A stretch of 64,000 nucleotides of DNA from Candidatus Micrarchaeota archaeon (GCA_028866995.1 JAGWHD010000001.1:337030-401029); one strand, 5' to 3'. Positions 2,929 to 45,429 are shown, numbered from the stretch's first letter. Program-made: numbers and translations. Notes: generated by a model not told the origin, from the letters alone.

Positions 2929-4370
2929 TGGCTGGTTGGATGGTCGATGGCCTGCGATTGTACAACTCGCTGACGAGGCTCGAGGAGCCATTCGAGCCGT
3001 CCGATGGCAATGATGTCAGGTTCTTCGTATGCGGCCAGACCGTGTACGACGACGCGCATCTCGGGCACGCAAAGAGCTACATAAATTTCGATGTAGTTGC
3101 AAGATGGCTTAGGCGAAAGGGATACAAGGTAAGGTACATACAGAACATAACCGACGTCGACGACAAGATAATAGCCAGGGCGAAGGAGAGGAACGAGGAT
3201 CCGATGGCGCTGGCGAGGCGCTTTGAGGAGAGGTTCCTTGAGGACATGGACAGGATAGGGGTCAGGAAGAATGTCGACAGGTATCCCCGCTCGCATGATT
3301 TCATAGTGCAGATAACGGGCCAGATAAGGCTGCTGGCAAAGAGGGGGTACGTATACAGTCTCGGCCAGGATATATACTTCGACGTGGCGAAATTCAAGGA
3401 CTATACGAAGCTGTCAGGGATGAAGCTTGAGGAGCTTGAGAGGCACAGGATAGAGGCAAAGGAGGGGAAGAGGCATACTTACGACTTCGCAGTGTGGAAG
3501 GAGGCGAAGGAGGGAGAGCCGTCATGGGATATAACTATCGAAATCGATGGCTCCGAGAAGGGCTTCAAGGGAAGGCCGGGATGGCACATAGAGGACACCG
3601 CAATGTCAGTATCGATATTCGGTGAGCAGTACGACCTGCATGGCGGAGCAAGGGAGCTCATATTTCCGCACCACAGCAACGAGATAGCGCAGGCAGAGGC
3701 CGCCTACGGGAAGAGGCCTTTTGTCAAGTACTGGATACATTCGGGCGTGCTAAGCGTCAACGGCGAGAAGATGTCGAAGAGCCTTGGCAACTTTATAACA
3801 ATAAGGGACATTCTGAAAAGCTACAGTCCTGAGTCATTGAGGATGTTCGTATGCTCGACGCATTACGCGAAGGACATAGACTACAACGAGAAGGCGATCA
3901 TTGAGGCCAGGAAGAGGCTTGCGTACATGAACTCGTCGCTGTCAGCATTCTACAACTGCGAAGAGGATGGCACTGCTGGTCCGCAGGCAAGGCAGGTAGT
4001 AGATGCCCTTGAGAAGGAGTTTGGGAATGCCATGGACGACAACTTCAACACGCCGCTTGCGCTGACCGCGCTGGTCAAGGCGGCGGAGGGGCTGAGAAGC
4101 ATAGCGGAATCGCAGGGAAAGGTCAACAAGTCAGATAAGGAATACGCGATTTCAAAGATGCTTGGATGCGCGTCGGTCCTCGGCCTGCTCGAGGACGGGG
4201 CCTTCAAGAAAGCGATGCCGAAGGAAGCGGCGGAGCTGATTAAGGAAAGGGACAGGTTGAGGAAGGAGAGGATGTTTGACAAGGCTGACGCCATAAGGGG
4301 CGAACTGCGCGATAAGTACGGGATAGGGATTGAGGACAGCGAGTACGGCACTGTCTGGTACAACGTCTAG
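2928..4370 (+). CDS. cysS: Cysteinyl-tRNA synthetase
   Basis: HIGH-type motif (DDAHLGHAKSY) and KMSKS (EKMSKSLGN). ATG 2928 overlaps the upstream TGA (TGATG). The ORF track begins 3 nt earlier at a GTG. Confidence 0.95.
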   Translation: MAGWMVDGLRLYNSLTRLEEPFEPSDGNDVRFFVCGQTVYDDAHLGHAKSYINFDVVARWLRRKGYKVRYIQNITDVDDKIIARAKERNEDPMALARRFEERFLEDMDRIGVRKNVDRYPRSHDFIVQITGQIRLLAKRGYVYSLGQDIYFDVAKFKDYTKLSGMKLEELERHRIEAKEGKRHTYDFAVWKEAKEGEPSWDITIEIDGSEKGFKGRPGWHIEDTAMSVSIFGEQYDLHGGARELIFPHHSNEIAQAEAAYGKRPFVKYWIHSGVLSVNGEKMSKSLGNFITIRDILKSYSPESLRMFVCSTHYAKDIDYNEKAIIEARKRLAYMNSSLSAFYNCEEDGTAGPQARQVVDALEKEFGNAMDDNFNTPLALTALVKAAEGLRSIAESQGKVNKSDKEYAISKMLGCASVLGLLEDGAFKKAMPKEAAELIKERDRLRKERMFDKADAIRGELRDKYGIGIEDSEYGTVWYNV

Positions 4371-7548: not shown

Positions 7549-7654
7549 GGGCTCATAGCTCAGCCTGGTCAGAGCGCCGGTCTTATACTTCAAGTTTCAA
7601 TTGAAGCTTGGATACGATAGCCGGATGTCGTGAGTTCAAATCTCACTGGGCCCA
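7549..7654 (+). tRNA. tRNA-Ile, anticodon TAT (UAU), with 31-nt intron at the canonical 37/38 site
   Basis: Acceptor GGGCTCA/TGGGCCC, D-arm GCTC-AGCCTGGTCA-GAGC, anticodon stem CCGGT/GCCGG, T-arm GTGAG-TTCAAAT-CTCAC, discriminator A. Spliced loop is CTTATAA. Mature length is 75 nt. Confidence 0.8.
7588..7618 (+). other. tRNA-Ile intron (bulge-helix-bulge)
   Basis: Central helix CTTA (7582-85)/TACG (7613-16) has one T-C mismatch. The 3-nt bulges are TA|C and AT|A. The inner helix is 6 bp, TTCAAG (7589-94)/CTTGGA (7607-12). Confidence 0.65.
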
Positions 7655-8667: not shown

Positions 8668-8735
8668 ACCACAAATAGGTTATGCAGAATGGATATAAGA
8701 ATACGACGACAAATGCAAAACCCTGTTATAAAACG

Positions 8736-9836
8736 CTAGGATAGGATGTCGGCGATGCTGCCGCAAATATACGATATCTCTTCCTTTGTAAGGTTGGGGC
8801 TGCTTGGAAGATTGATGCCTCTGACTGAGAGTTCCTGGGCAACGGGGAGGTTTTTGCCAGTGTTGTACATAGGGAGCATGTGCAATGGGTAGAAGAATGG
8901 CCTTGTCTCTATGCCTTCCTTATCAAGTCGCTCCATGACCATGGACCTTTTGCTCTTGTCAACGAGTATTGAATAATACCAGTATACGTTCTTTGCCCAT
9001 GGCATTTCAGGCTGCACCGTTACACCCTCTACGTTGCTGAGGAGCTTATTGTAGTGCGATGCCATCTTCCGTTTGTCGGATATGACTTTGCCGATTTTCT
9101 TTATCTGGGCTGCGCCTATGGCAGCCTGCATGTTGGTGAGCCTGTAGTTGAAACCGATGACATCGGTCCAGTACCTGTTGCCGTGGCTCTCCTTAGGCTT
9201 CGTACCCTGGTTCCTCAGTATCATCATTTTTTCTGCGAGTTCGCGATTGTCCGTTAGACACATCCCTCCTTCTCCAGTAGTCACTATCTTGTTCCCATAG
9301 AATGAGAAGCAGCTTATGTCACCGAATGTCCCTATCTTTCTCCCTTTGTACTCTGCCCCATGAGCTTCAGCTGCATCCTCTATCAGATACAGGTCATTCT
9401 CCTTTGCTATCTTGGTTATTGCATCCATGTCGCACGGATGGCCGTAAAGATGCACTACGACCAATGCCTTCGTCCTCTTCGTTATACGCCTTCGGATATC
9501 CTCGGGGTCTATGCACCAATAATCGCTATCCGAGTCGGCAAAGACCGGTCTTGCTCCAGTGTAAGCGATGGTGTTGGCGTTGGCAACATTCGTCAGTGTC
9601 GGCACTATGACTTCGTCGCCTTTTCCTATACCTATTGCCAAGAGCGCCAGGTGGAGTGCGGTTGTGCCATTTGATGAGGCTATGCCGTATTTTGTGCCGA
9701 TGTATGAAGAGAACCCTTTCTCGAACATCTCTATGTATTTACCTTTTGAGCTTATCCACCCGCTCTTTACGGCATCTGTTATGTTCCCCAACTCTTCCTT
9801 GCCGAGCTTCACATCAACTATTCTTATCCTTTCCAT
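8736..9836 (-). CDS. DegT/DnrJ/EryC1-family PLP sugar aminotransferase
   Basis: 366 aa. Fold-type I sugar aminotransferase pattern with the Lys region FSFYGNKIVTTGEGGM. 2 nt downstream of the cupin isomerase gene. Confidence 0.9.
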   Translation of the reverse strand: MERIRIVDVKLGKEELGNITDAVKSGWISSKGKYIEMFEKGFSSYIGTKYGIASSNGTTALHLALLAIGIGKGDEVIVPTLTNVANANTIAYTGARPVFADSDSDYWCIDPEDIRRRITKRTKALVVVHLYGHPCDMDAITKIAKENDLYLIEDAAEAHGAEYKGRKIGTFGDISCFSFYGNKIVTTGEGGMCLTDNRELAEKMMILRNQGTKPKESHGNRYWTDVIGFNYRLTNMQAAIGAAQIKKIGKVISDKRKMASHYNKLLSNVEGVTVQPEMPWAKNVYWYYSILVDKSKRSMVMERLDKEGIETRPFFYPLHMLPMYNTGKNLPVAQELSVRGINLPSSPNLTKEEISYICGSIADILS

Positions 9837-9838
9837 TC

Positions 9839-10252
9839 TTATCCCGCTAGCCTCTTGAACTCGGCGTAATCCCGTATGTATTCCTTCTGGTCAAGCACAT
9901 CATCAACAAGCGCAAGGAGCACTGCGTCCTTGGAGAAGTTCCTGAACTCGCGCCAGACCATCGGCGCTATGTAGAGCGCCCTTGCTGGGTTGCCAAGAGT
10001 TATCCTTTTGGTCTTTTTGCCTTTCTCCAGCAACACATCGAAGCTGCCGCTCACTGCCACTATAATCTGTTTTTCCCACTTATGCGCGTGGGCTCCCCTT
10101 GCTTTGCCCTTCGGCACGCCATAGAGATAGTAGGCTCTTTTTACCTTAAACGGTACCTCCTTGCCGACCTGCAGGAATGAAGCGCTACCGCGCTGATCGC
10201 GAGCCGTAGGTATCGCTATCAGCTTCCAGAAGTGAGCGCTGCCTTTTGCCAT
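9839..10252 (-). CDS. FdtA/WxcM-like cupin (NDP-4-keto-6-deoxyhexose 3,4-ketoisomerase family)
   Basis: 137 aa. Cupin with GKARGAHAHK His pair and the YYLYGVP motif typical of FdtA-like isomerases. Confidence 0.75.
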   Translation of the reverse strand: MAKGSAHFWKLIAIPTARDQRGSASFLQVGKEVPFKVKRAYYLYGVPKGKARGAHAHKWEKQIIVAVSGSFDVLLEKGKKTKRITLGNPARALYIAPMVWREFRNFSKDAVLLALVDDVLDQKEYIRDYAEFKRLAG

Positions 10253-10308
10253 AAAACCTATTTTATATTGGTGCTCTTATATATTTATGGATTTTACCGA
10301 TTGATTAA

Positions 10309-11376
10309 ATGAAAGTTGCCATCGTAAACTTAACAAAACCCGTTTCTGGGACTGGAGACGGCATGACAGAGTACACGTTCCAGCTTGTAAAGAACATGAA
10401 AATGATTAAGGGGGTTGAGGTTGTCTCGTTCTATGCTCTCGAGGAGACGCGCAGAAGGAATGTTGTTGGGCTTGTCGCAGCACAACCGATCCTTGGTGGG
10501 AAGGTCAATGCAATCGTAAAAGGCAACTTTGACATAGTCCACATAACCAACCAGGAAGCCGGGTTTGTGGCAAGGATGCTGAAGAGGAAGGGTTGCAAGG
10601 CGAAGATACTGACAACTGTGCACGACACAATGCGCTTGAGAACCGACCTACATAGGGGGATAAAGCAAGGCGCATACAACCATATGGTTAGGGGGCATAT
10701 CAGGGATGCGGTAGACTATTCCGATGAGCTCCTATTCGATGAGCCAAAGACGGTCGCTGAGTTGAAGAGGTTCAGAAGCTTCGGCAGGTACAAGGTCGTG
10801 TTCCTAGGGGTGGATGAAAGGTTCTTGGGGAAGGTTAAGAATAGCCATGAAGGGGAAAGTTTTGTTGTGGGTTACCTTGGATCCTTCGCTCACAACAAGA
10901 ACGTCGGATTCATATTGAGAACAGCGAAGCTGCTGAGGAAAGAGAAGGGCATAAAGTTCAGTATTTACGGTAGCGGAGGAGAGATCGATGCTCTCAAGGC
11001 ATATAAAAATGACAATGAGCTTAGCAATGTTGATTTTATGGGGTTTGCGCCGGAGGTCAGGAAACGTGAAATATACGATAGTTTCGATGCGTTCGTGTTC
11101 CCTACTCTGGGAGAGGATTTCTCGCTTCCGATACTTGAAGCCATGGCTAGCGGGTCTGTAGTGATAATACCAAAGTCATCGGAACTTGTCGGATTCCAAA
11201 GGAAGCATTGCATGGAGGCCAATAATGAGAAGGGATTGGCTTCCCTCCTGATAAGGCTTAAGGAAAGAGGGCCGAATAAGAGTTTCATAAGGAAAGCTGC
11301 AGAGTTCGCACGCTCGTTGACTTGGAAGGAGACTGCAAAGAACACATTAGCAGAGTACAAGGGATTGCTCAGCTGA
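10309..11376 (+). CDS. GT-B glycosyltransferase (GT4-like)
   Basis: 355 aa. C-terminal EX7E-type region GEDFSLPILEAMASGSVVI. Confidence 0.85.
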   Translation: MKVAIVNLTKPVSGTGDGMTEYTFQLVKNMKMIKGVEVVSFYALEETRRRNVVGLVAAQPILGGKVNAIVKGNFDIVHITNQEAGFVARMLKRKGCKAKILTTVHDTMRLRTDLHRGIKQGAYNHMVRGHIRDAVDYSDELLFDEPKTVAELKRFRSFGRYKVVFLGVDERFLGKVKNSHEGESFVVGYLGSFAHNKNVGFILRTAKLLRKEKGIKFSIYGSGGEIDALKAYKNDNELSNVDFMGFAPEVRKREIYDSFDAFVFPTLGEDFSLPILEAMASGSVVIIPKSSELVGFQRKHCMEANNEKGLASLLIRLKERGPNKSFIRKAAEFARSLTWKETAKNTLAEYKGLLS

Positions 11377-12435
11377 TTATTCGAGAACCTCCCTGCCTCT
11401 CTTTTTCATCTCCATTTCCTTGTAGTAGGGAGCATCGAACGAGAATCTTTCGCCCTTCTGCCATTTCTCCCATCTCCTTATATCCTCATTCACCATTATC
11501 TTGACCAGCTCCCTGAAGCTCGTCTTTGGTTTCCAGCCCAACTCCTTTTGCGCTTTGGATGAATCACCAAGAACAAGATCGAAGTCGATGTGCCTGCGGA
11601 ATGTTTTGTCGCTCTTTACGTATTTCTCCGGATCCTTGCCTATTAACTTGAACCCTTCCTCAACGAATTCCCTTACTGAATGGGACTCTCCGGTAGCCAG
11701 GACATAATCCTTAGGAGTTTTTGAATTAAGCATCAGATGCATGCCTTCCACATATTCTGGCGCATACCCCCAATCCCGCTTGCTGTCCATGTTGCCGAGC
11801 CTGAGCTCTTTTGAAAGACCGAGATGAATCCTGGCAATCTCGTTTGATATTTTTCGGGTTACGAATTCGAGTCCTCTCAGTGGGGATTCGTGGTTGAACA
11901 GTATGCCAGACACTGAGAACAGTTTGTAAGACTCCCGGTATATCCTTGTAGTCCAGTAGCCGTACAGCTTTGCTGTTGCGTATGGACTCACAGGATTGAA
12001 TGGGGACTCTTCGTTCAGCTTCATCTTCTGGTACTGCACAGACTGGCCGTACATTTCGCTCGTGCCAGCGAAGTAAAACTTGGTGCTTTCATCGTGAAGT
12101 CTTATTGCTTCAAGAAAGTTTAGTACGGATATGCCGTCTATGTTTGCCGTTGCTATTGGGGATTCATAACTTGCGCGTACAAAGCTCTGTGCGGCCAGGT
12201 GGTATATCTCATCGGCCTGCGAGGTCTTTATCGCGTCCAATATTGACGAAAAATCAGTTATGTCTGCTGATATTAGGTTTATCTTGTCGAAAATACCCAA
12301 GTAATCGAGTCGCCAGAAGTTTGGGGTGCTCGTTCTGCGGTAGGTTCCGTATACCTCGTATCCATTGTCGAGCAGGTGTCTTGCTAGGTATGCGCCGTCC
12401 TGGCCTGTTATTCCAGATATGAGGGCTTTTTTCAT
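11377..12435 (-). CDS. gmd: GDP-mannose 4,6-dehydratase
   Basis: 352 aa. GITGQDGAYLARHLL, YATAKLY, ILFNHESPLRG, RDWGYAPEYVE. Collinear with the Gmd pattern. Confidence 0.92.
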   Translation of the reverse strand: MKKALISGITGQDGAYLARHLLDNGYEVYGTYRRTSTPNFWRLDYLGIFDKINLISADITDFSSILDAIKTSQADEIYHLAAQSFVRASYESPIATANIDGISVLNFLEAIRLHDESTKFYFAGTSEMYGQSVQYQKMKLNEESPFNPVSPYATAKLYGYWTTRIYRESYKLFSVSGILFNHESPLRGLEFVTRKISNEIARIHLGLSKELRLGNMDSKRDWGYAPEYVEGMHLMLNSKTPKDYVLATGESHSVREFVEEGFKLIGKDPEKYVKSDKTFRRHIDFDLVLGDSSKAQKELGWKPKTSFRELVKIMVNEDIRRWEKWQKGERFSFDAPYYKEMEMKKRGREVLE

Positions 12436-12478
12436 TCTGATACCGATATATTATAGTGGTTCTTAACGGATATAAACA

Positions 12479-13159
12479 TTAATCATTGCGGCGGTGCCTC
12501 TTAATGAACATGGTGGGGTTGTAGAAGTACCCCAGATTCTCTCTTATCTTCGTTTCGCTCCATTTCCACCACTCTATCTTAAGCAGCTTGCTCCTTATAC
12601 TTTTCGAGAACCTGTATCCTATTCTCTTAGCGGGCATTCCTCCCACTATTTCATATGGCTCAACGTCGTGTGTAACTATAGCGCCAGCAGCTATCACAGC
12701 GCCATCGCCTATGTTTCTGGAGCCAATTATCTTTACATCGTTGCCTATCCACACGTCATTGCCTATGCTGACTCTTGAATCCTTTCCTGCCTTCTTGGAA
12801 TGATATAGCGCATTGTAGTCCTTATCATCTGCGCCGAAGAATAGTTTGTTCATATGGGAACTAACAAAATTGGGCGTGTGCCTGCTGCTCGGCAGCAGAT
12901 ACAAGTTCTCTCCTATTCTAGTATAGCTTCCGAAACTTATCTCTGTGCGCTCCGGGGAGAATGCTATCACGTGTATGATGTTGCTACTTGATGAGTTTGT
13001 GCCTATCTTTATTTTCTTAAACTTTCCAGGCCATTGGTTGACATATATGCCTTCTGTTCCTTGCCTGAAGTGAAATAGATACTTCAACCTGTATATGAAA
13101 TTTATCATGTTTGGGAATATAAGATAGAGATCGCCAATGCGATTTCTCCAGAAGCCCAT
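12479..13159 (-). CDS. Left-handed beta-helix (hexapeptide) acetyltransferase, XAT/Vat-like
   Basis: 226 aa. IGNDVWIGNDVKIIGSRNIGDGAVIAAGAIV repeats and a C-terminal YRF...LLKIEWWKW tail. Confidence 0.75.
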   Translation of the reverse strand: MGFWRNRIGDLYLIFPNMINFIYRLKYLFHFRQGTEGIYVNQWPGKFKKIKIGTNSSSSNIIHVIAFSPERTEISFGSYTRIGENLYLLPSSRHTPNFVSSHMNKLFFGADDKDYNALYHSKKAGKDSRVSIGNDVWIGNDVKIIGSRNIGDGAVIAAGAIVTHDVEPYEIVGGMPAKRIGYRFSKSIRSKLLKIEWWKWSETKIRENLGYFYNPTMFIKRHRRND

Positions 13160-13238
13160 TCTGATTACCTCAAAAGATTAAGGTTTTGGTAGTTTATATA
13201 GCTTCTTGCACACCTAAGATTTAGAAGTTGGTGCGACA

Positions 13239-14636
13239 TTGGAGAGAAGAAAAAAGCCAAACATAATCATGATAATGCTAGATACATTCAGGGCAGACTA
13301 TCTTAGTGATTATGGCGGTGAGAAACGCCTGCAGTTCATCGAAAGCATTGCGAGCAAGAGTACGGTTTACAAGAATTCATATGCTCCTGGAACGTACACT
13401 GTACCTTCCCACGCAGCGCTTTTCCTCAACAAGCGCGTGGTCGATATAAGGAGTGTACTTGAAGGGCACAGACTTAAACTTTCAGTTGAATCGACGGGGT
13501 TGCCGCAGTACATAAAGAAAGGCGACAAGACACTTGCTTCAAAGCTGTTGAAGCTGGGGTACGAAACTGCTCTATTCTCAAGCAATCCATTCATAGCTGA
13601 GAGGACAGGTTTTGGAGAGGGGTTTGCTGTGGCTAAGGATACGGAAGGGGAGAAGGCCGCAAGGGAATCAGGTAAGGGACCTGGAATGGCTGATAGAATG
13701 CTTAATAGCGAGGCCTTCATGAGATCTGTGCAGTTTGCATCGCATGTGATAAGGGGAAAGATGCTTGACAAGCTGTTTGTAGACTTCACTAGGAGGATGG
13801 AAAGGCAACTGGCTAGCGACTCTGGATATGCAGGCCTTGATATGGGGGCAGCGATGCTCGAAGAGATGGTGGCTAGTCATCTTAAGAATTCGTCTGCCTC
13901 AAGGCCGAAGTTCATGTTCTTGAACTATATGGAAGCGCATGAGCCTTATCCGATAAGTAAGGATGACATAATACAGGGTAGATGGCTCTACATGGGTGGT
14001 TTGCTCGCGCTTGATGGAGTCAAAGACATAAAGGAAGCATGCTTTAGAAGGCTCGTCTATCTTGATGACAAGATAAAAAAACTGTTCACTATATTAGAAG
14101 ATAGGGGATTCCTCGATAATGCTGTGGTAATCATTACCAGCGACCATGGTCAGGCTTTCATGGAGCACGGACAGATGTACCATGACCTTTTGCCATACGA
14201 AGAGATGGTCAGGATACCTATTATCGTGGGGAGGTTTTCTGGTGGAAGGCAGATAGGCTCTAGGACCGTAACGGAAAATCCGACAAGCCTTCTCGAAATG
14301 CATAGGTATATACTTGACCTGGCAAATGGCGGCGTCGTAAAAACCTCTGCAAAAAACGTAGCTTTCTCAGATCACATAGGAACTGCAAGATGGTGGGGTT
14401 CAGATATAGTGAAGAAACTTCGCGACAAGTCGAGTGGTTTTGCAAGAATAAACAGCATCATGGAACTATCGGACACCAAGGCGACGGCCGTATACTACAA
14501 GCATTACAAACTGATACACTACTACGGGAAGAGACATGATGAGTTATTCGACCTGCTGAAGGACCGGGCGGAGGTTGACAACATAATAGACAAGGGGAAG
14601 AGGGTATATGCACATATGCTGAAACTGCTCAAGTAG
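13239..14636 (+). CDS. Alkaline-phosphatase-superfamily (sulfatase/NPP-like) enzyme with Thr at the nucleophile position
   Basis: 465 aa, TTG start. MLDTFRADY metal site. T-V-P-S-H (aa 54-58) lies where sulfatases have C/S-x-P-x-R. ITSDHGQAF. No TM segment. Confidence 0.8.
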   Translation: MERRKKPNIIMIMLDTFRADYLSDYGGEKRLQFIESIASKSTVYKNSYAPGTYTVPSHAALFLNKRVVDIRSVLEGHRLKLSVESTGLPQYIKKGDKTLASKLLKLGYETALFSSNPFIAERTGFGEGFAVAKDTEGEKAARESGKGPGMADRMLNSEAFMRSVQFASHVIRGKMLDKLFVDFTRRMERQLASDSGYAGLDMGAAMLEEMVASHLKNSSASRPKFMFLNYMEAHEPYPISKDDIIQGRWLYMGGLLALDGVKDIKEACFRRLVYLDDKIKKLFTILEDRGFLDNAVVIITSDHGQAFMEHGQMYHDLLPYEEMVRIPIIVGRFSGGRQIGSRTVTENPTSLLEMHRYILDLANGGVVKTSAKNVAFSDHIGTARWWGSDIVKKLRDKSSGFARINSIMELSDTKATAVYYKHYKLIHYYGKRHDELFDLLKDRAEVDNIIDKGKRVYAHMLKLLK

Positions 14637-15699
14637 AACTCTTCTTCATGTACCTATTCTTGTACTTTTTTTCGAGCAGTTCCATCAGGAGTTTTATTCC
14701 GTGTTTCCTGTTTTTGTATCTCAGGGTAAGTTGAGCTACAGTGGTGTCTTTGTCAAGGCCTAGAAATTTAGTTATGCCAATATCGTGTATTATCTTTGAT
14801 ATCTCTAGCACCATTTGAGAATTTGGCTCCTTTTTCCATTGTTCTATATCCCTAAGCCTCTTTGTTTTCTCATCTATTAGCTGCTTTCTAATAGCGTTGT
14901 CATTTGTCTGCCCCAGCAATGGTCTGTATTTGAAACTGTAGAAGAGTCTGTAATCAATATTGGTGAGTTCCTGGTTTGGCTTCTTAAGAGTGAGTTTTTC
15001 ATAAAACACCAGCGCTCCGATAATCACTAATCCTAGGAGTGATTTCTCGCGCTCGCCTTTTCCAAGCACATTCTTTTCATAGAAATACTCAGCAATCTTA
15101 TCGTTGAACATTCGGTAGGTGAATCTTTCGTATTTTTCCAGTTTATCATACTCTATTGAGCTCTTGCCCGACAGTAAGTGCACCACGTAATGCTTGATAC
15201 AATATTTCTCGTCCTCAAGCCTCTCCACTGTTCCGGATATTGCTGGCTGCTCGTGAAGTAGTCCTTTGAATGTCGCTTTGTTCTTCTTGAATATGCGTAT
15301 CTGCCAAGTGACAAAATCCGTGGCCTGTCTGCCGTTCAGCATTATGTAGTTTCTGATGGTGAATGCGTCTGCGGAACCTGTTCCTATCAATTTGCCTAAG
15401 TCTTTCTTGAGGGCCGGACTCAGCCTCTCATCCGTTCCCATTAGAAGAACCCATTCACTCCTGCATCTGTTCACTCCATATGTAAAAAGAGGATCTGCAA
15501 GGCCAAGAGCGATTGCATGGTGTATAATTAGCCTTGTAAGATTCTCGCTCTTCTTTTTTGCCATCAGTTTTTTGGCATCCTTTGCGTCGCTCGAATCCAC
15601 AACCACTATCTCGTCGACTATGTTGTACAGGTCATTGATGAGGCCTATCGCCTTGCCGATGTCATTCCTGCAGAAGATAAGCGCGGATATGCTACTCAT
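14629..15699 (-). CDS. GT-A glycosyltransferase (GT2-like) with extended C-terminal region
   Basis: 356 aa. N-terminal LIFCRND...IVVVDSSD pattern. Last gene of a 4-gene overlapping operon. Confidence 0.65.
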   Translation of the reverse strand: MSSISALIFCRNDIGKAIGLINDLYNIVDEIVVVDSSDAKDAKKLMAKKKSENLTRLIIHHAIALGLADPLFTYGVNRCRSEWVLLMGTDERLSPALKKDLGKLIGTGSADAFTIRNYIMLNGRQATDFVTWQIRIFKKNKATFKGLLHEQPAISGTVERLEDEKYCIKHYVVHLLSGKSSIEYDKLEKYERFTYRMFNDKIAEYFYEKNVLGKGEREKSLLGLVIIGALVFYEKLTLKKPNQELTNIDYRLFYSFKYRPLLGQTNDNAIRKQLIDEKTKRLRDIEQWKKEPNSQMVLEISKIIHDIGITKFLGLDKDTTVAQLTLRYKNRKHGIKLLMELLEKKYKNRYMKKSST

Positions 15700-16135
15700 G
15701 TTTATCTATTTGCTTCGCTGGATTCCCGTATACTGTTGCGTTATCTGGAACGTCTTTTGTCACAACAGATCCTGCTCCTATCATACTATCCTTACCTATC
15801 TTTATTCCAGGGAGTACCACGGAATGTGCTCCTATCGATGCGCCGTCATCTACGGTTGTTTTGAGAAGCTTCCAGTCACCTGAGGATTTGGGGTACTTGT
15901 CGTTTGTGAATGTGACTCCTGGGCCTATGAATACGCCATTCCCTATCTCCACTCCTGTTGGTATGTATACGTTGGGCTTTATCTTGCAGTTGTCTCCTAT
16001 CACAACGCCTTCCTCAATGTACACGAAGGACTCTATCTTGCAGTTCTTGCCTATCTTGCATTTGTAGAGGTTTACGTGGTCCCTGATCTCGGTACCTTCC
16101 CCTATCGTACAATCCTTGATTATTGAGTACAGCAT
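15692..16135 (-). CDS. Hexapeptide-repeat N-acetyltransferase (WbpD-like)
   Basis: 147 aa, almost entirely LbH repeats (IGDNCKIKPNVYIPTGVEIGNGVFIGPGV). 8-nt overlap with the downstream gene. Confidence 0.8.
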   Translation of the reverse strand: MLYSIIKDCTIGEGTEIRDHVNLYKCKIGKNCKIESFVYIEEGVVIGDNCKIKPNVYIPTGVEIGNGVFIGPGVTFTNDKYPKSSGDWKLLKTTVDDGASIGAHSVVLPGIKIGKDSMIGAGSVVTKDVPDNATVYGNPAKQIDKHE

Positions 16136-42744: not shown

Positions 42745-42750
42745 GCCGGT

Positions 42751-43137
42751 TCACCTTGATATGGACCTGAATGCCAGAATCCTCTCTTCAACTGCGGCTA
42801 CGATGCCGTTTCCGCCATTGCCGCGAGCGCGAAGCCTGCTGGCGATGCTGTCGGCCTCTTCTGCGTGCTGCCTCTCTCCAGCATCTGCAAACTCTGCGCT
42901 CAGCGCTACAGCAGCCTTGACTATCTTGTCCCTTGTTGCCTCTTCGAGCTTCTTCTCCCCCCATTCGGTCAGTCCGAGGCCGCTGCCGTCCTTTATCTGC
43001 TTCTTCAGCCTGGACCCTATCTCTGCTGTTGTTGATCTCCTGTAGAATTCGATCCTTTCGCAGTAGCCGTCCGGATACCTTTCCCTGCATGCTTCTTTTG
43101 GCGGGTACTGAGGCCCCGTCCTCTGCCCGAATCCCAT
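42751..43137 (-). CDS. Hypothetical protein
   Basis: 128 aa ORF between dph5 and radA, chosen over the overlapping 42788..43153 frame on composition. No motif recognised. Confidence 0.4.
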   Translation of the reverse strand: MGFGQRTGPQYPPKEACRERYPDGYCERIEFYRRSTTAEIGSRLKKQIKDGSGLGLTEWGEKKLEEATRDKIVKAAVALSAEFADAGERQHAEEADSIASRLRARGNGGNGIVAAVEERILAFRSISR

Positions 43138-43176
43138 GAATGAATAGGTCCATGGATGATATATAAAGATGCGGAT

Positions 43177-45429
43177 TCAGTCCCTTATCCCGTTCGGGGT
43201 TATCTTCATGACAGCTTCCCCCTCGGGCATGTTTGGCGAGTCCACGAGCCTGACTATCCTCTTGTCCTCCTTCGACTTCCTCATGTAGAGCCTTGTTGTC
43301 GCCGCGTGCGCTATGATGTTGCCGCCGACAGGCGTTGTCGGATCGCCGAAAAGTATGCCTGGGTTCTCCATGACCTGGTTGGTGACGTACACTGCAAGCA
43401 TGTGCGTGTCAGCAAGCTGCTGCATCTTGTGTATGTGCTGGTTGAGCTTCTGCTGCCTCTCCGCGAGCGCGCCCCTTCCCACGAACTCGCTCCTGAATAG
43501 GTTCATTATCGAGTCCACGATTATCAGCTTGACGTTGTGCTCCCTGATGAGCTTGTCGGCCCTCTCGAGCGCGAGCACCTGCTGCTCTGTGTTGTAGGCC
43601 CTGACAACGAGTATGTTATCCAGCACCTTCTGCGGGTCCATGTTGCTTGCCTTGGCTATCTGCTCTATCCTGTCAGGCCTGAAGGTATTATGTAGGAAAA
43701 CGCCACCGTAGCCTCCTATGAAGTTTTCTATCTTTTTACCGGGCATGACCTCAAAATCGTAACAGACTTCCTCTGAAACTTCTTCTATAGACACGACTTT
43801 GTCGAACCATATGTCGCTATCAATTAGCTTTTTAAGCTTCGAAACAGATGGCGTTTCATTGAGAGGATTTAGCAGCCGCTTAAGTTTGCTTCTACTTACG
43901 GATTTGACTATGCCTGTTTCTATCTGTGAAACCGGAGCTACTGTATTGCCTGTTGTTATGCCATACTGTGTCGCCCCGTTTTCTTTTCTTGCTTTCTTGA
44001 GAAGGCGGCCTATCTGTAGGCAGTTGTTTGGCAGGAGTTGTAGGTTCCTGTCTTTCTTCGTATCTACAGCCCAATGAATGTTGTATGTCTGGCTTGGCCC
44101 GCCCTTTGAGTGCACGCCTTCCCTGAATATTTGCTGGTTCCTAGCAGGCACGCGGAAAGACGCCATTAGGTAGAGTAGGTCATTAGCTAGAAATCTGCTC
44201 GCAGTATCGGCATTTTGGGTGTTATTGGGCTTGTTCAGGCTGCCGTCTCCAATCAGGTAGCCGTTGAGGAAGCTGTTTTGGGATGTGGTTGTCGAATTGA
44301 GTATAAATTCCGGCACCCTTTTGGTATGCGAGTTATATGGTGAGAACTGGTAGCATGCTTTCAGCTCTTCTGTTAGCTCTTTGGAATAAATCCTATAATC
44401 CATTTTGTTCCTATGGTACCTTAAACCTCTTTTCTTTGTGAAATTTTGGACTATTTTCTCTACTTTTGGGTTATCTTTCTGGGTGATAATTGTAAGGTAA
44501 TGCCCAGTCTTGTATCTATCGTCCGGTATCATGCTGCCTTCGGCAACATACAGACCGAAGAATTCGGCTTCCTCGTCGGATATGTCATTTTTGTGTGTCG
44601 CGTTTGGGATAAAGGCAGGAACCGCTACGAAGTCTTTTTCTTTGATATCCTTAAGGTAAGTTGGGGCCAAGTCTCCCTCCTTGTCTAGTGTGAAGAAGTT
44701 GTGATATTCGGTAGTCTTGACCTCTCTGCCGCTCGCGAGCTTGATTCTGAATATCTTTTTAATAGGATGCTTTATGAAACCGGTTATGTCGAATCGGTCT
44801 ACCTTAAGTGTTTGGGGGTCAAATGAGACCGCCCGAATCCTCCTTGGGTTCTCCGATACGGATATGCTGCCGTTTATGTCTTTGGCTTCTTTTGCATCCG
44901 TTATTGCTCGTTCTACAACTTCGCCGATCTTCTCGAAACGCAGCTTTCCGTCTATTTCTAATAGAACCGTTTCCTCGTAAGGCAGGCTGCCCTCCGTGTC
45001 TATGAACAGGGTGCTGCCGTCAAGGCCCCCCTCGCTTATCGGCAGCTGGGCGTTGACCGCTATCTGGAACCCCAGCTGCGTCTTTCCTGAGGCGAACTTC
45101 CCATACGCCTCTGTTATGGCATTGGTCTCTACGCCCCCTCCAAGCAGCTCGTCAAGGCTCTTGGAACCCGTCTTGATCCTGCCCAGGGCCTTCCTCGTCT
45201 CGTAGATCTTGGAGCCTGATTCGAATTCAAGGGTCGTGGCCTGCTTTGCGGCGTCGACCGCCTTCTTGGCGTTCTCGACGCTGATCCCTGATACCTCTGC
45301 TATCTCGTGCGGCGATGATGTGGCTATCTTCTCTATGCTGTCGTAGCCCTTCTCCTTCAGCTTCTCAGCCGATGCCGGTCCGACCCCCGGAAGGTCCTCA
45401 AGAGACTTTAACCCCTTCTCCTTCGCCAC
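43177..45429 (-). CDS. radA: RadA recombinase interrupted by an intein
   Basis: 750 aa, GTG start. N-terminal HhH (LEDLPGVGPASAEKL), Walker A GKFASGKTQ, FIDTEG | intein | TFRPDRI, Walker B LIIVDS. Exteins sum to 316 aa. Confidence 0.93.
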   Translation of the reverse strand: MAKEKGLKSLEDLPGVGPASAEKLKEKGYDSIEKIATSSPHEIAEVSGISVENAKKAVDAAKQATTLEFESGSKIYETRKALGRIKTGSKSLDELLGGGVETNAITEAYGKFASGKTQLGFQIAVNAQLPISEGGLDGSTLFIDTEGSLPYEETVLLEIDGKLRFEKIGEVVERAITDAKEAKDINGSISVSENPRRIRAVSFDPQTLKVDRFDITGFIKHPIKKIFRIKLASGREVKTTEYHNFFTLDKEGDLAPTYLKDIKEKDFVAVPAFIPNATHKNDISDEEAEFFGLYVAEGSMIPDDRYKTGHYLTIITQKDNPKVEKIVQNFTKKRGLRYHRNKMDYRIYSKELTEELKACYQFSPYNSHTKRVPEFILNSTTTSQNSFLNGYLIGDGSLNKPNNTQNADTASRFLANDLLYLMASFRVPARNQQIFREGVHSKGGPSQTYNIHWAVDTKKDRNLQLLPNNCLQIGRLLKKARKENGATQYGITTGNTVAPVSQIETGIVKSVSRSKLKRLLNPLNETPSVSKLKKLIDSDIWFDKVVSIEEVSEEVCYDFEVMPGKKIENFIGGYGGVFLHNTFRPDRIEQIAKASNMDPQKVLDNILVVRAYNTEQQVLALERADKLIREHNVKLIIVDSIMNLFRSEFVGRGALAERQQKLNQHIHKMQQLADTHMLAVYVTNQVMENPGILFGDPTTPVGGNIIAHAATTRLYMRKSKEDKRIVRLVDSPNMPEGEAVMKITPNGIRD
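43687..44988 (-). mobile_element. Intein (434 aa) with LAGLIDADG homing-endonuclease domain
   Basis: Starts SLPYEETVLL (Ser1). Block B TTEYH. LAGLIDADG motifs FFGLYVAEGS and FLNGYLIGDGS. Ends VFLHN followed by Thr+1. The segment looks more AT-rich than the flanking radA exteins by eye. Confidence 0.88.

Follow-up and report, generated by a model that had tools for sequence, protein, structure and literature searches.

The radA gene on a 64,000-nucleotide (nt) stretch of DNA from a Candidatus Micrarchaeota archaeon (GCA_028866995.1, JAGWHD010000001.1:337030-401029; the whole stretch is called the window here) raises the question of why its open reading frame (ORF) specifies 750 amino acids (aa) when its two recognizable RadA portions join into a protein of 316 aa. 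The precursor ORF occupies 43177..45429 on the minus strand, as do all features of the gene described below, and runs from a GTG start to a stop codon. The evidence presented here indicates that the additional sequence is very probably a class-1 intein, one that carries a LAGLIDADG homing endonuclease within it and would splice by way of Ser1 and Thr+1 and subsequently home. A reading made from the sequence alone (the sequence-only reading) had proposed a 434-aa intein at 43687-44988 within a 750-aa RadA whose exteins sum to 316 aa; these coordinates and lengths proved exact.

The boundaries of the insert follow directly from the translated ORF. Because SLPYEETVLL begins at ORF residue 148 and VFLHN ends at residue 581, the insert comprises 434 aa, lies between G147 and T148, and occupies window positions 43687..44988, opening with Ser1 and ending with His433-Asn434. 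The N-extein (RadA aa 1-147, 44989..45429) carries the helix-hairpin-helix domain, the Walker A sequence GKFASGKT (aa 110-117, 45079-45102) and, at its end, IDTEG (44989-45003). The C-extein (RadA aa 148-316 plus stop, 43177..43686) opens with the predicted +1 nucleophile, the Thr of TFRPDRI, and contains the Walker B sequence LIIVDS (43510-43527). Joined in silico, the exteins read ...LFIDTEG^TFRPDRIEQ..., where the caret marks the insertion point here and throughout. The NCBIfam RadA equivalog NF003301 matched the ORF (E 1.6e-130) in two stretches, the C-terminal one restarting at model position 144 and ORF residue 580, and Pfam Rad51 (E 2e-83) was likewise interrupted. The insert is in frame, its exteins form a complete RadA homologue, and intein-less alleles of this homologue are known. 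The Ser at position 1 of SLPYEETVLL and the VFLHN terminus followed by TFRPDRI, which restores the conserved motif, had both been noticed from the sequence and are upheld.

Both halves of a splicing domain were located within the insert. The N-terminal splicing (HINT) subdomain (intein aa 1-130, 44599..44988) matched the intein N-terminus model TIGR01445 (E 4.8e-13), is beta-rich in the predicted structure, and includes block A (SLPYEETVLLEID, 44950-44988) and block B (GREVKTTEYHNFFT, 44689-44730) with T93 and H96. The C-terminal subdomain (intein aa 391-434, 43687..43818), recognized by residues conserved in the two alignments described below, includes block F (VCYDFEVMPGKKIENFIGG, 43711-43767) with D411 and block G (GGVFLHN, 43687-43707), which leads into the junction VFLHN^TFRPDRI. 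For the sequence-only reading, an insert lacking blocks A, B, F and G would have been grounds for abandoning an intein; all four were looked for and are present, including the block B sequence TTEYH, now placed at intein aa 92-96. Pfam Intein_splicing matched the insert with E-values of 1.5e-19 to 1.7e-20, and the best PDB sequence match was PI-PkoII (E 6.5e-22), followed by TFIIB mini-inteins and CDC21-1 inteins.

Residue conservation was assessed in a family alignment of 13 homologues (A1) and a RadA-site alignment of 8 homologues (A2). The Ser1 nucleophile is nearly invariant in A1 and invariant in A2. Within the block B motif T93-E-Y-H96 (T-x-x-H), H96 is invariant and T93 nearly invariant in A1, where Y410, D411, E413, E421, N422, F423 and N434 are also invariant; H433 and N434 (A2 columns H440 and N441) are invariant among RadA-site alleles. 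The +1 residue is Thr in the window copy and Thr or Ser in the other same-site alleles. An AlphaFold2 model of the intein built from the 13-sequence alignment gave a mean predicted local distance difference test score (pLDDT) of 86 and a predicted template modeling score (pTM) of 0.86. A Foldseek search with this model returned PI-TkoII (2cw7; E 1e-25, query TM-score, TMq, of 0.77), then TliVMA (7qss) and PI-PfuI (1dq3). Many solved inteins, mini-inteins among them, were matched with a Foldseek probability of 1.0, consistent with a HINT fold for the predicted structure.

Between the two splicing subdomains lies a LAGLIDADG homing endonuclease domain (intein aa ~131-318, 44035..44598), delimited by Pfam, conservation and the model. 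Pfam LAGLIDADG_3 was matched at E 2.5e-5, with 24.9 bits against a cut-off of 22.5. The two motifs named from the sequence, FFGLYVAEGS and FLNGYLIGDGS, were verified as AEFFGLYVAEGS (intein aa 141-152, 44533-44568) and SFLNGYLIGDGS (aa 239-250, 44239-44274), and the acidic residue of each is retained in the window copy (E150 in GLYVAEGS and D248 in GYLIGDGS). In alignment A1, G145, G151 and G243 are invariant, and Y147, A149, G247, D248 and G249 nearly so. The alpha-beta-beta-alpha-beta-beta-alpha pattern occurs twice in the AlphaFold2 model, and Foldseek paired the endonuclease fold with PI-TkoII and PI-PfuI as well as with I-DmoI, I-SceI and I-OnuI variants. The endonuclease would be expected to recognize the joined extein site. 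This putative homing site, taken as 21 nt flanking each intein end (43666..45009), is contiguous in intein-less alleles: the window flanks read CTGTTCATAGACACGGAGGGC^...^ACCTTCAGGCCTGACAGGATA, and the empty allele of contig L055 reads TTCATAGACACCGAAGGC^ACCTTCAGGCCAGACAGGATA.

A small, helical segment that follows the endonuclease and precedes the C-terminal splicing subdomain, and that the sequence-only reading had missed, was assigned, from profiles and modeling, to a diverged XRE-type helix-turn-helix (HTH) module (intein aa ~319-390, 43819..44034, core 43861-44016). The window copy itself falls below the Pfam gathering thresholds, with 16.8 bits (E 0.0085-0.01) against 27 for HTH_31 and 13.9 against 23 for HTH_3. 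Among 22 homologous modules, 17 matched HTH_31 at E <= 0.01 (best 4.4e-12) and 14 matched HTH_3, and the relatives P0024 and P0029 exceed the Pfam HTH cut-offs. A profile of the module found HipB (5e-6) and C.BclI (1e-5) in the PDB, along with SinR and 434 repressor. When modeled separately with AlphaFold2, the module gave five helices in a lambda-repressor-like fold (pLDDT 87), and the 50 best Foldseek matches were almost all XRE-type proteins (C.BclI, C.Esp1396I, DdrO, SinR and HipB) with target TM-scores (TMt) of 0.6-0.76; the accompanying E-values were weak (0.06-0.5), as is to be expected of a domain of this size. Other large inteins also have additional DNA-binding regions, and by analogy the HTH is probably an accessory DNA-binding module.

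The position of the intein in RadA places it within the ATPase core. RecA Glu96 is a catalytic residue. A BLASTP comparison with the Escherichia coli RecA sequence aligned FIDTEGTFRP with FIDAEHALDP and so placed E146 opposite RecA E96; E146, the Glu of the IDTE motif, thus appears to correspond to Glu96, and the intein sits one residue past it. Five insertion points, a to e, have been catalogued for RadA and RecA, and only c1 and e are RadA points (Topilina et al. 2015, PMC4513877). Point c1, known from the RadA of Thermococcales and Archaeoglobus, falls where the P-loop ends; point e is represented by aa 278-774 of a DPANN single-cell genome, Nanoarchaeota archaeon SCGC AAA011-L22; points a, b and d lie at the monomer-monomer interface of bacterial RecA, with b at about aa 205-207 (PMC4513877). 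In window numbering c1 corresponds to K116^T117 and is not matched by the present insertion at G147^T148, in agreement with the sequence-only reading, which had placed the insert downstream of Walker A and away from the P-loop site of the Pyrococcus horikoshii intein.

Point e was assigned to A275^A276, in the L2 region, by position number and taxon rather than from WP_018203495 itself. An intein at A275^A276 accompanies a present-site intein in the Woesearchaeota loci L019 and L022, where its junctions follow the form GGH(I/V)..H(N/A)^C...HN^STYR (for example GGHIVGHN^C...VVHN^STYR). Identity of the present site with point e was rejected because the two inteins coexist in these genes. By this alignment, G147^T148 would differ from both catalogued RadA points, so that comparison with known sites, which had been proposed as a check, yields neither c1 nor e. 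In the literature library that was searched, no paper was found that describes an intein at G147^T148 of RadA, inteins of Micrarchaeota or DPANN archaea, or inteins that contain XRE or HTH domains.

The occupancy of this site was surveyed in one genome per GTDB species with the patterns D[TS]E[NGS]SLPY[DE] and GG[IV][FI][LV]HN[TS]F, derived from alignment A2. Seventeen RadA loci with the present site occupied were recovered from DPANN and TACK archaea, distributed among Micrarchaeota, Aenigmatarchaeota, Woesearchaeota, Altiarchaeota, Bathyarchaeia, Nitrososphaeria, Ca. Geocrenenecus, Ca. Terraquivivens and an unclassified archaeon (L015); a Diapherotrites RadA from the protein search, P0023, is also occupied there. 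Same-site proteins were already public, named simply RadA at NCBI and either "intein/homing endonuclease" or [quoted passage not shown] in IMG. As a RadA intein allele, that of the window had already been sequenced but is missing from the catalogue.

Two or three inteins were found in single radA genes: L014, L017, P0019 and P0168-P0179 (Nitrososphaerota, Ca. Geocrenenecus), L019 and L022, and L007 and P0023. The additional sites in these genes are, in window numbering, K116^T117 (c1), N179^T180 and A275^A276. N179^T180 (AYN^SLPYHEQ...CCHN^SDHQ) is a further radA site outside the 2015 a-e catalogue, and its intein shares the SLPY start. Loci L023-L054, at 23-29% identity, matched the C-terminal search pattern GG[IV][FI][LV]HN[TS]F only and come from CPR, Aquificota, Gammaproteobacteria, other bacteria and a few archaea; a RadA extein is absent from all of these.

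When the intein alone was compared with 5.8 billion proteins, only three close relatives were returned, each a 750-aa RadA with the insert at the same place: P0001, named Micrarchaeota, at 97% identity, and P0002 and P0003 at 67-69%, whose contigs keep the window gene order around radA. More distant matches were a Nitrososphaeria RadA fragment and haloarchaeal dCTP deaminase inteins. An exhaustive search of representative sequences added six RadA hosts (P0018-P0023), a RadA fragment (P0099) and two RNase HII hosts, and these family members share the SLP.. start, the HTH module and Thr or Ser at +1. The intein is 433-435 aa long in Micrarchaeota, whereas most others are 508-527 aa and have an extra ~90 aa before the first LAGLIDADG motif. 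This extra segment (...HPDRVYNWRSRGSLPLRVYNHIK...) occurs in P0004, P0019-P0023 and L009-L022 and not in the Micrarchaeota form; it has no Pfam match and, by eye, resembles a second small DNA-binding motif. In some relatives the endonuclease acidic residues have been lost (AAEAS and GGGY in P0168, AAKGS in P0019).

The inteins at the same RadA site (P0018-P0023, L007-L022) have junctions of the form D(T/S)E(G/N/S/Q)^SLP(Y/F)(D/E)E ... HN^(T/S)F(R/S), the same blocks and the same HTH module, at 34-56% identity, and are alleles of one intein. Outside Micrarchaeota they differ in being mostly 508-527 aa and in having Asn or Ser rather than Gly at -1, and several share their gene with one or two further inteins. 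The inteins of haloarchaeal dCTP deaminase and of RNase HII (P0005-P0017, P0024, P0029, P0037 and P0039) resemble the present one in their SLPY(D/E)E start, in the order of their modules, an XRE-type HTH included, and in Thr+1, at 26-45% identity, but reside in other host proteins, and those of dCTP deaminase end in Ser-Asn, not His-Asn.

Of the characterized inteins, PI-TkoII/PI-PkoII, the Pol-2 intein of Thermococcus kodakarensis (PDB 2cw7/2cw8), is the best match by both sequence and predicted fold. Like the present intein it has a HINT splicing domain and a two-motif LAGLIDADG endonuclease. It also has extra sequence after the endonuclease and ahead of its C-terminal splicing region, and this sequence aligns with the final helices of the HTH module here. 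PI-TkoII also has Ser1 and Thr+1. It differs in its host (a family B DNA polymerase), site, length (537 against 434 aa) and hyperthermophilic source, and identity in the structural alignment is only ~18%. The P. horikoshii RadA intein and the other c1 alleles of Thermococcales and Archaeoglobus share with the present intein the RadA host, a location in the ATPase core and Thr+1 (PMC4513877), and the HINT fold of our model matches 4e2t and 2lqm; the P. horikoshii intein is, however, a 172-aa mini-intein at c1 with Cys1 and without an endonuclease, and is not close in sequence. The point e intein of SCGC AAA011-L22 is likewise a large RadA intein from the DPANN group and has been placed in the ATP-binding site (PMC4513877), but differs in its site, A275^A276 in the L2 region.

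The base composition of the insert sets it apart from its host. Its GC content is 0.445, compared with 0.590 for the N-extein and 0.561 for the C-extein, and its GC at third codon positions (GC3) is 0.51, compared with 0.76 and 0.81 for the exteins and about 0.62-0.79 for other genes of the window. In 200-nt windows, GC ranged from 0.36 to 0.51 within the insert and from 0.55 to 0.605 in the exteins, so the AT-richness that the sequence-only reading had judged by eye is confirmed by every measure, including the windowed one that it had called for. Intein GC3 is below extein GC3 by 0.15-0.30 in four hosts, namely the window and three others of different GC. Amino acid composition as the sole cause of the low GC was rejected given the GC3 of 0.51 against 0.76-0.81. 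The composition of the intein is foreign to its host.

Selection also acts on the intein. Comparison of the window with contig L001 (JAGWGK010000019.1, named Micrarchaeota) gave ratios of nonsynonymous to synonymous substitution (dN/dS) of 0.14 for the intein and 0.11 for its endonuclease domain, and distant pairs gave nonsynonymous and synonymous proportions (pN and pS) of 0.17-0.20 and 0.77-0.88, the latter saturated. The intein and its endonuclease domain are therefore under purifying selection, as are the exteins, strongly so in the case of the C-extein (dN/dS 0.04). Empty sites are found in close relatives. The 120 best homologues of spliced RadA are all 316-341 aa long and hence lack the intein, and the closest intein-less homologue, P0182 of contig L055, is 96% identical in protein sequence. 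The DNA alignment of L055 with the window breaks at 44988 and restarts at 43686, which confirms the boundaries of the insert at the DNA level.

Similarity between Micrarchaeota populations is distributed unevenly across the gene. The window and L001 are 100% identical from 51429 to 44288, more than 7 kb in which the genes upstream, the N-extein and the initial 701 nt of the intein all lie. Mismatches begin at 44287, and the remaining part of the intein (43687..44287) differs at 35 of 601 nt (94.2% identity), compared with 82 of 510 nt in the C-extein (83.9%) and about 74% identity downstream. The excess of mismatches in the C-extein over the intein is significant overall (Fisher p 4e-8) and at third positions (39% against 12%, p 3e-9). 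A second contig, L044 (JAGWGW010000001.1, a 131-kb contig of the GTDB representative), is about 81% identical to the window upstream and 83.7% in the N-extein, whereas 53 of the first 54 nt of its intein are identical, at which point the contig stops. The intein is thus much more similar between two Micrarchaeota populations (94-98% where comparable) than are the exteins (~84%) or the flanks (~74-81%). Given a near-identical intein in two co-sampled populations whose flanks are ~81% identical, recent lateral transfer after their divergence is likely, a judgment held at that level because the data are contigs of metagenome-assembled genomes (MAGs), and the pattern of similarity may reflect homing.

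Several observations weigh against a splicing and homing intein that moved recently. Splicing of the precursor through Ser1 and Thr+1 and cleavage by the endonuclease are both predicted from conserved residues. The Micrarchaeota HTH copies have a 3-residue deletion in the helix-2/turn region, and no part of the intein is less conserved than the HTH (aa identity of 52-59%, compared with 69-71% for the other parts); because it is in addition below threshold, the window module may be decaying. Part of the low GC is attributable to protein sequence, given that Phe, Tyr, Met, Ile, Asn and Lys make up 33% of the intein and 27% of the exteins. The evidence for transfer comes from MAG contigs, to which L044 contributes just 54 nt of intein; L001 is most simply a chimeric assembly joined within the intein, and cross-assembly of co-sampled populations could inflate intein identity.

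Such assembly effects are the substance of one alternative, in which the intein has been inherited vertically within a Micrarchaeota clade and its near-identity is an artifact, with L001 and L044 mixing reads of two co-sampled populations. The abrupt passage of L001 from more than 7 kb of perfect identity to ~74%, the termination of L044 inside the intein, and the fact that both accessions belong to one series (JAGWGK and JAGWGW) are in keeping with this explanation, as is the comparison of the window with L002 and L005, where intein (67-69%) and extein (59-76%) protein identities are alike, as vertical descent predicts. By contrast, mismatches are scattered along all of the 3' 600 nt of the intein and are densest in the HTH, its least constrained region, with no alternation of dense and empty tracts and a longest exact run of 75 nt. 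L044 has its own single-nucleotide polymorphism within its 54 nt, and its tip is therefore not simply sequence of the window population. Even a chimeric join requires a long exact word shared within the intein, and pure vertical descent leaves both the GC3 deficit and the intein-less close relatives unexplained. Vertical inheritance with artifactual identity is accordingly considered unlikely. The shared intein itself seems to have caused the chimeric join in L001 and the contig break in L044 in these public Micrarchaeota MAGs. Composition is only suggestive as a pointer to which contig is the mosaic: window GC3 is ~0.68-0.77 on both sides of radA, and the genes downstream in L001 have values of 0.62-0.75. 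L055 is equally near to both exteins of the window but not to both exteins of L001.

A mobile, splicing intein would be expected to act as follows. The translated 750-aa precursor would not be an active ATPase, since its core is split one residue past the Glu. An N-O acyl shift at Ser1, aided by T93 and H96 of block B, would give an ester open to attack by Thr+1, and cyclization of Asn434, aided by H433 and D411, would free the intein. The products would be a 316-aa RadA with the restored motif IDTEGTFRPDRI and a free 434-aa intein. The latter would be expected to cut intein-less radA at about TTCATAGACAC(G/C)GA(G/A)GGC^ACCTTCAGGCC through its two-motif LAGLIDADG active site (E150 and D248), with the diverged XRE-type HTH probably supplying extra DNA contacts. 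The element would then spread as the cut is repaired with an intein-bearing copy as template.

The principal alternative to this scheme, and one that is compatible rather than exclusive, holds that the intein still splices but is no longer mobile, and that it is retained as a post-translational switch on RadA, with the precursor inactive until spliced and a signal adjusting the splicing. Such signal-tuned splicing is reportedly a property of the P. horikoshii and T. kodakarensis RadA inteins. Conditional splicing has been documented for RadA inteins at the P-loop site (PMC4513877), and the location one residue past the Glu aligned with RecA E96 would suit a switch. Loss of mobility would also fit the Micrarchaeota form, which is about 90 aa shorter than the 520-527-aa form of other phyla and has a degenerate HTH, and the disappearance of LAGLIDADG acidic residues from P0168 and P0019. 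The window copy, however, keeps both acidic residues, and its endonuclease domain is under purifying selection. The foreign composition, the intein-less alleles in close relatives and the greater similarity of the intein than of the exteins between populations all fit an element that is still moving. Retention purely as an immobile switch is thus improbable.

A lineage-specific RadA domain that does not splice, or a dead element that leaves RadA non-functional, is very improbable: splicing is predicted here from sequence, and Ser1 with Thr+1 is one of the less common intein nucleophile pairs, but every splicing block and catalytic residue is present and conserved, the predicted fold is HINT plus LAGLIDADG, the ATPase core is split one residue past a conserved Glu while the exteins are strongly selected, and the nearest solved relative, PI-PkoII/PI-TkoII, is an intein homing endonuclease. 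A non-intein RadA domain was accordingly rejected on the blocks, residues, fold and empty site, and the intein first called from the sequence is supported.

RadA is the central recombinase of archaea, and its P-loop intein has been shown to be a switch controlled by splicing. The second and widely occupied site G147^T148, together with N179^T180, extends the 2015 a-e catalogue and reveals radA genes with up to three inteins. The Micrarchaeota copies offer a natural setting in which to follow how an intein passes from one population of host-dependent DPANN archaea to another that occurs with it, and a Ser/Thr-based intein from a probably non-thermophilic source could, if active, serve protein engineering. 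The general understanding of inteins is unchanged by these results. A broader proposal can be advanced only tentatively and is more doubtful than not by some way: that a lineage of XRE-HTH LAGLIDADG inteins occupies RadA G147^T148, possibly N179^T180, dCTP deaminase and RNase HII, with the HTH as an exchangeable DNA-targeting module, and that the Micrarchaeota copy is now spreading between co-occurring species. More speculatively, splicing beside the catalytic Glu might act as a recombinase switch, or the free intein as a DNA-binding regulator.

Additional features of the window were observed outside radA. About 430 nt (42745-43176) of relatively high GC (about 0.60) separate the radA stop codon from a TP_methylase (diphthine-synthase-like) gene. 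This region contains a minus-strand ORF of 128 aa (42751-43137) with no Pfam match; it is present in the window and in L055 (a 129-aa ORF at 3972-4361) and absent from L001 and L005. On the plus strand, Rfam identified a 106-nt tRNA at 7549-7654 (57.8 bits) that was not reported by ARAGORN and may be an intron-containing archaeal tRNA. Finally, the interval ~8700-16000 has a low GC of 0.42-0.50, compared with 0.52-0.55 elsewhere, and a GC3 of 0.51-0.60. Its genes encode enzymes of sugar modification, namely a DegT aminotransferase, glycosyltransferases, a GDP-mannose 4,6-dehydratase, a hexapeptide transferase and a sulfatase, and it looks like a surface-glycan gene island.

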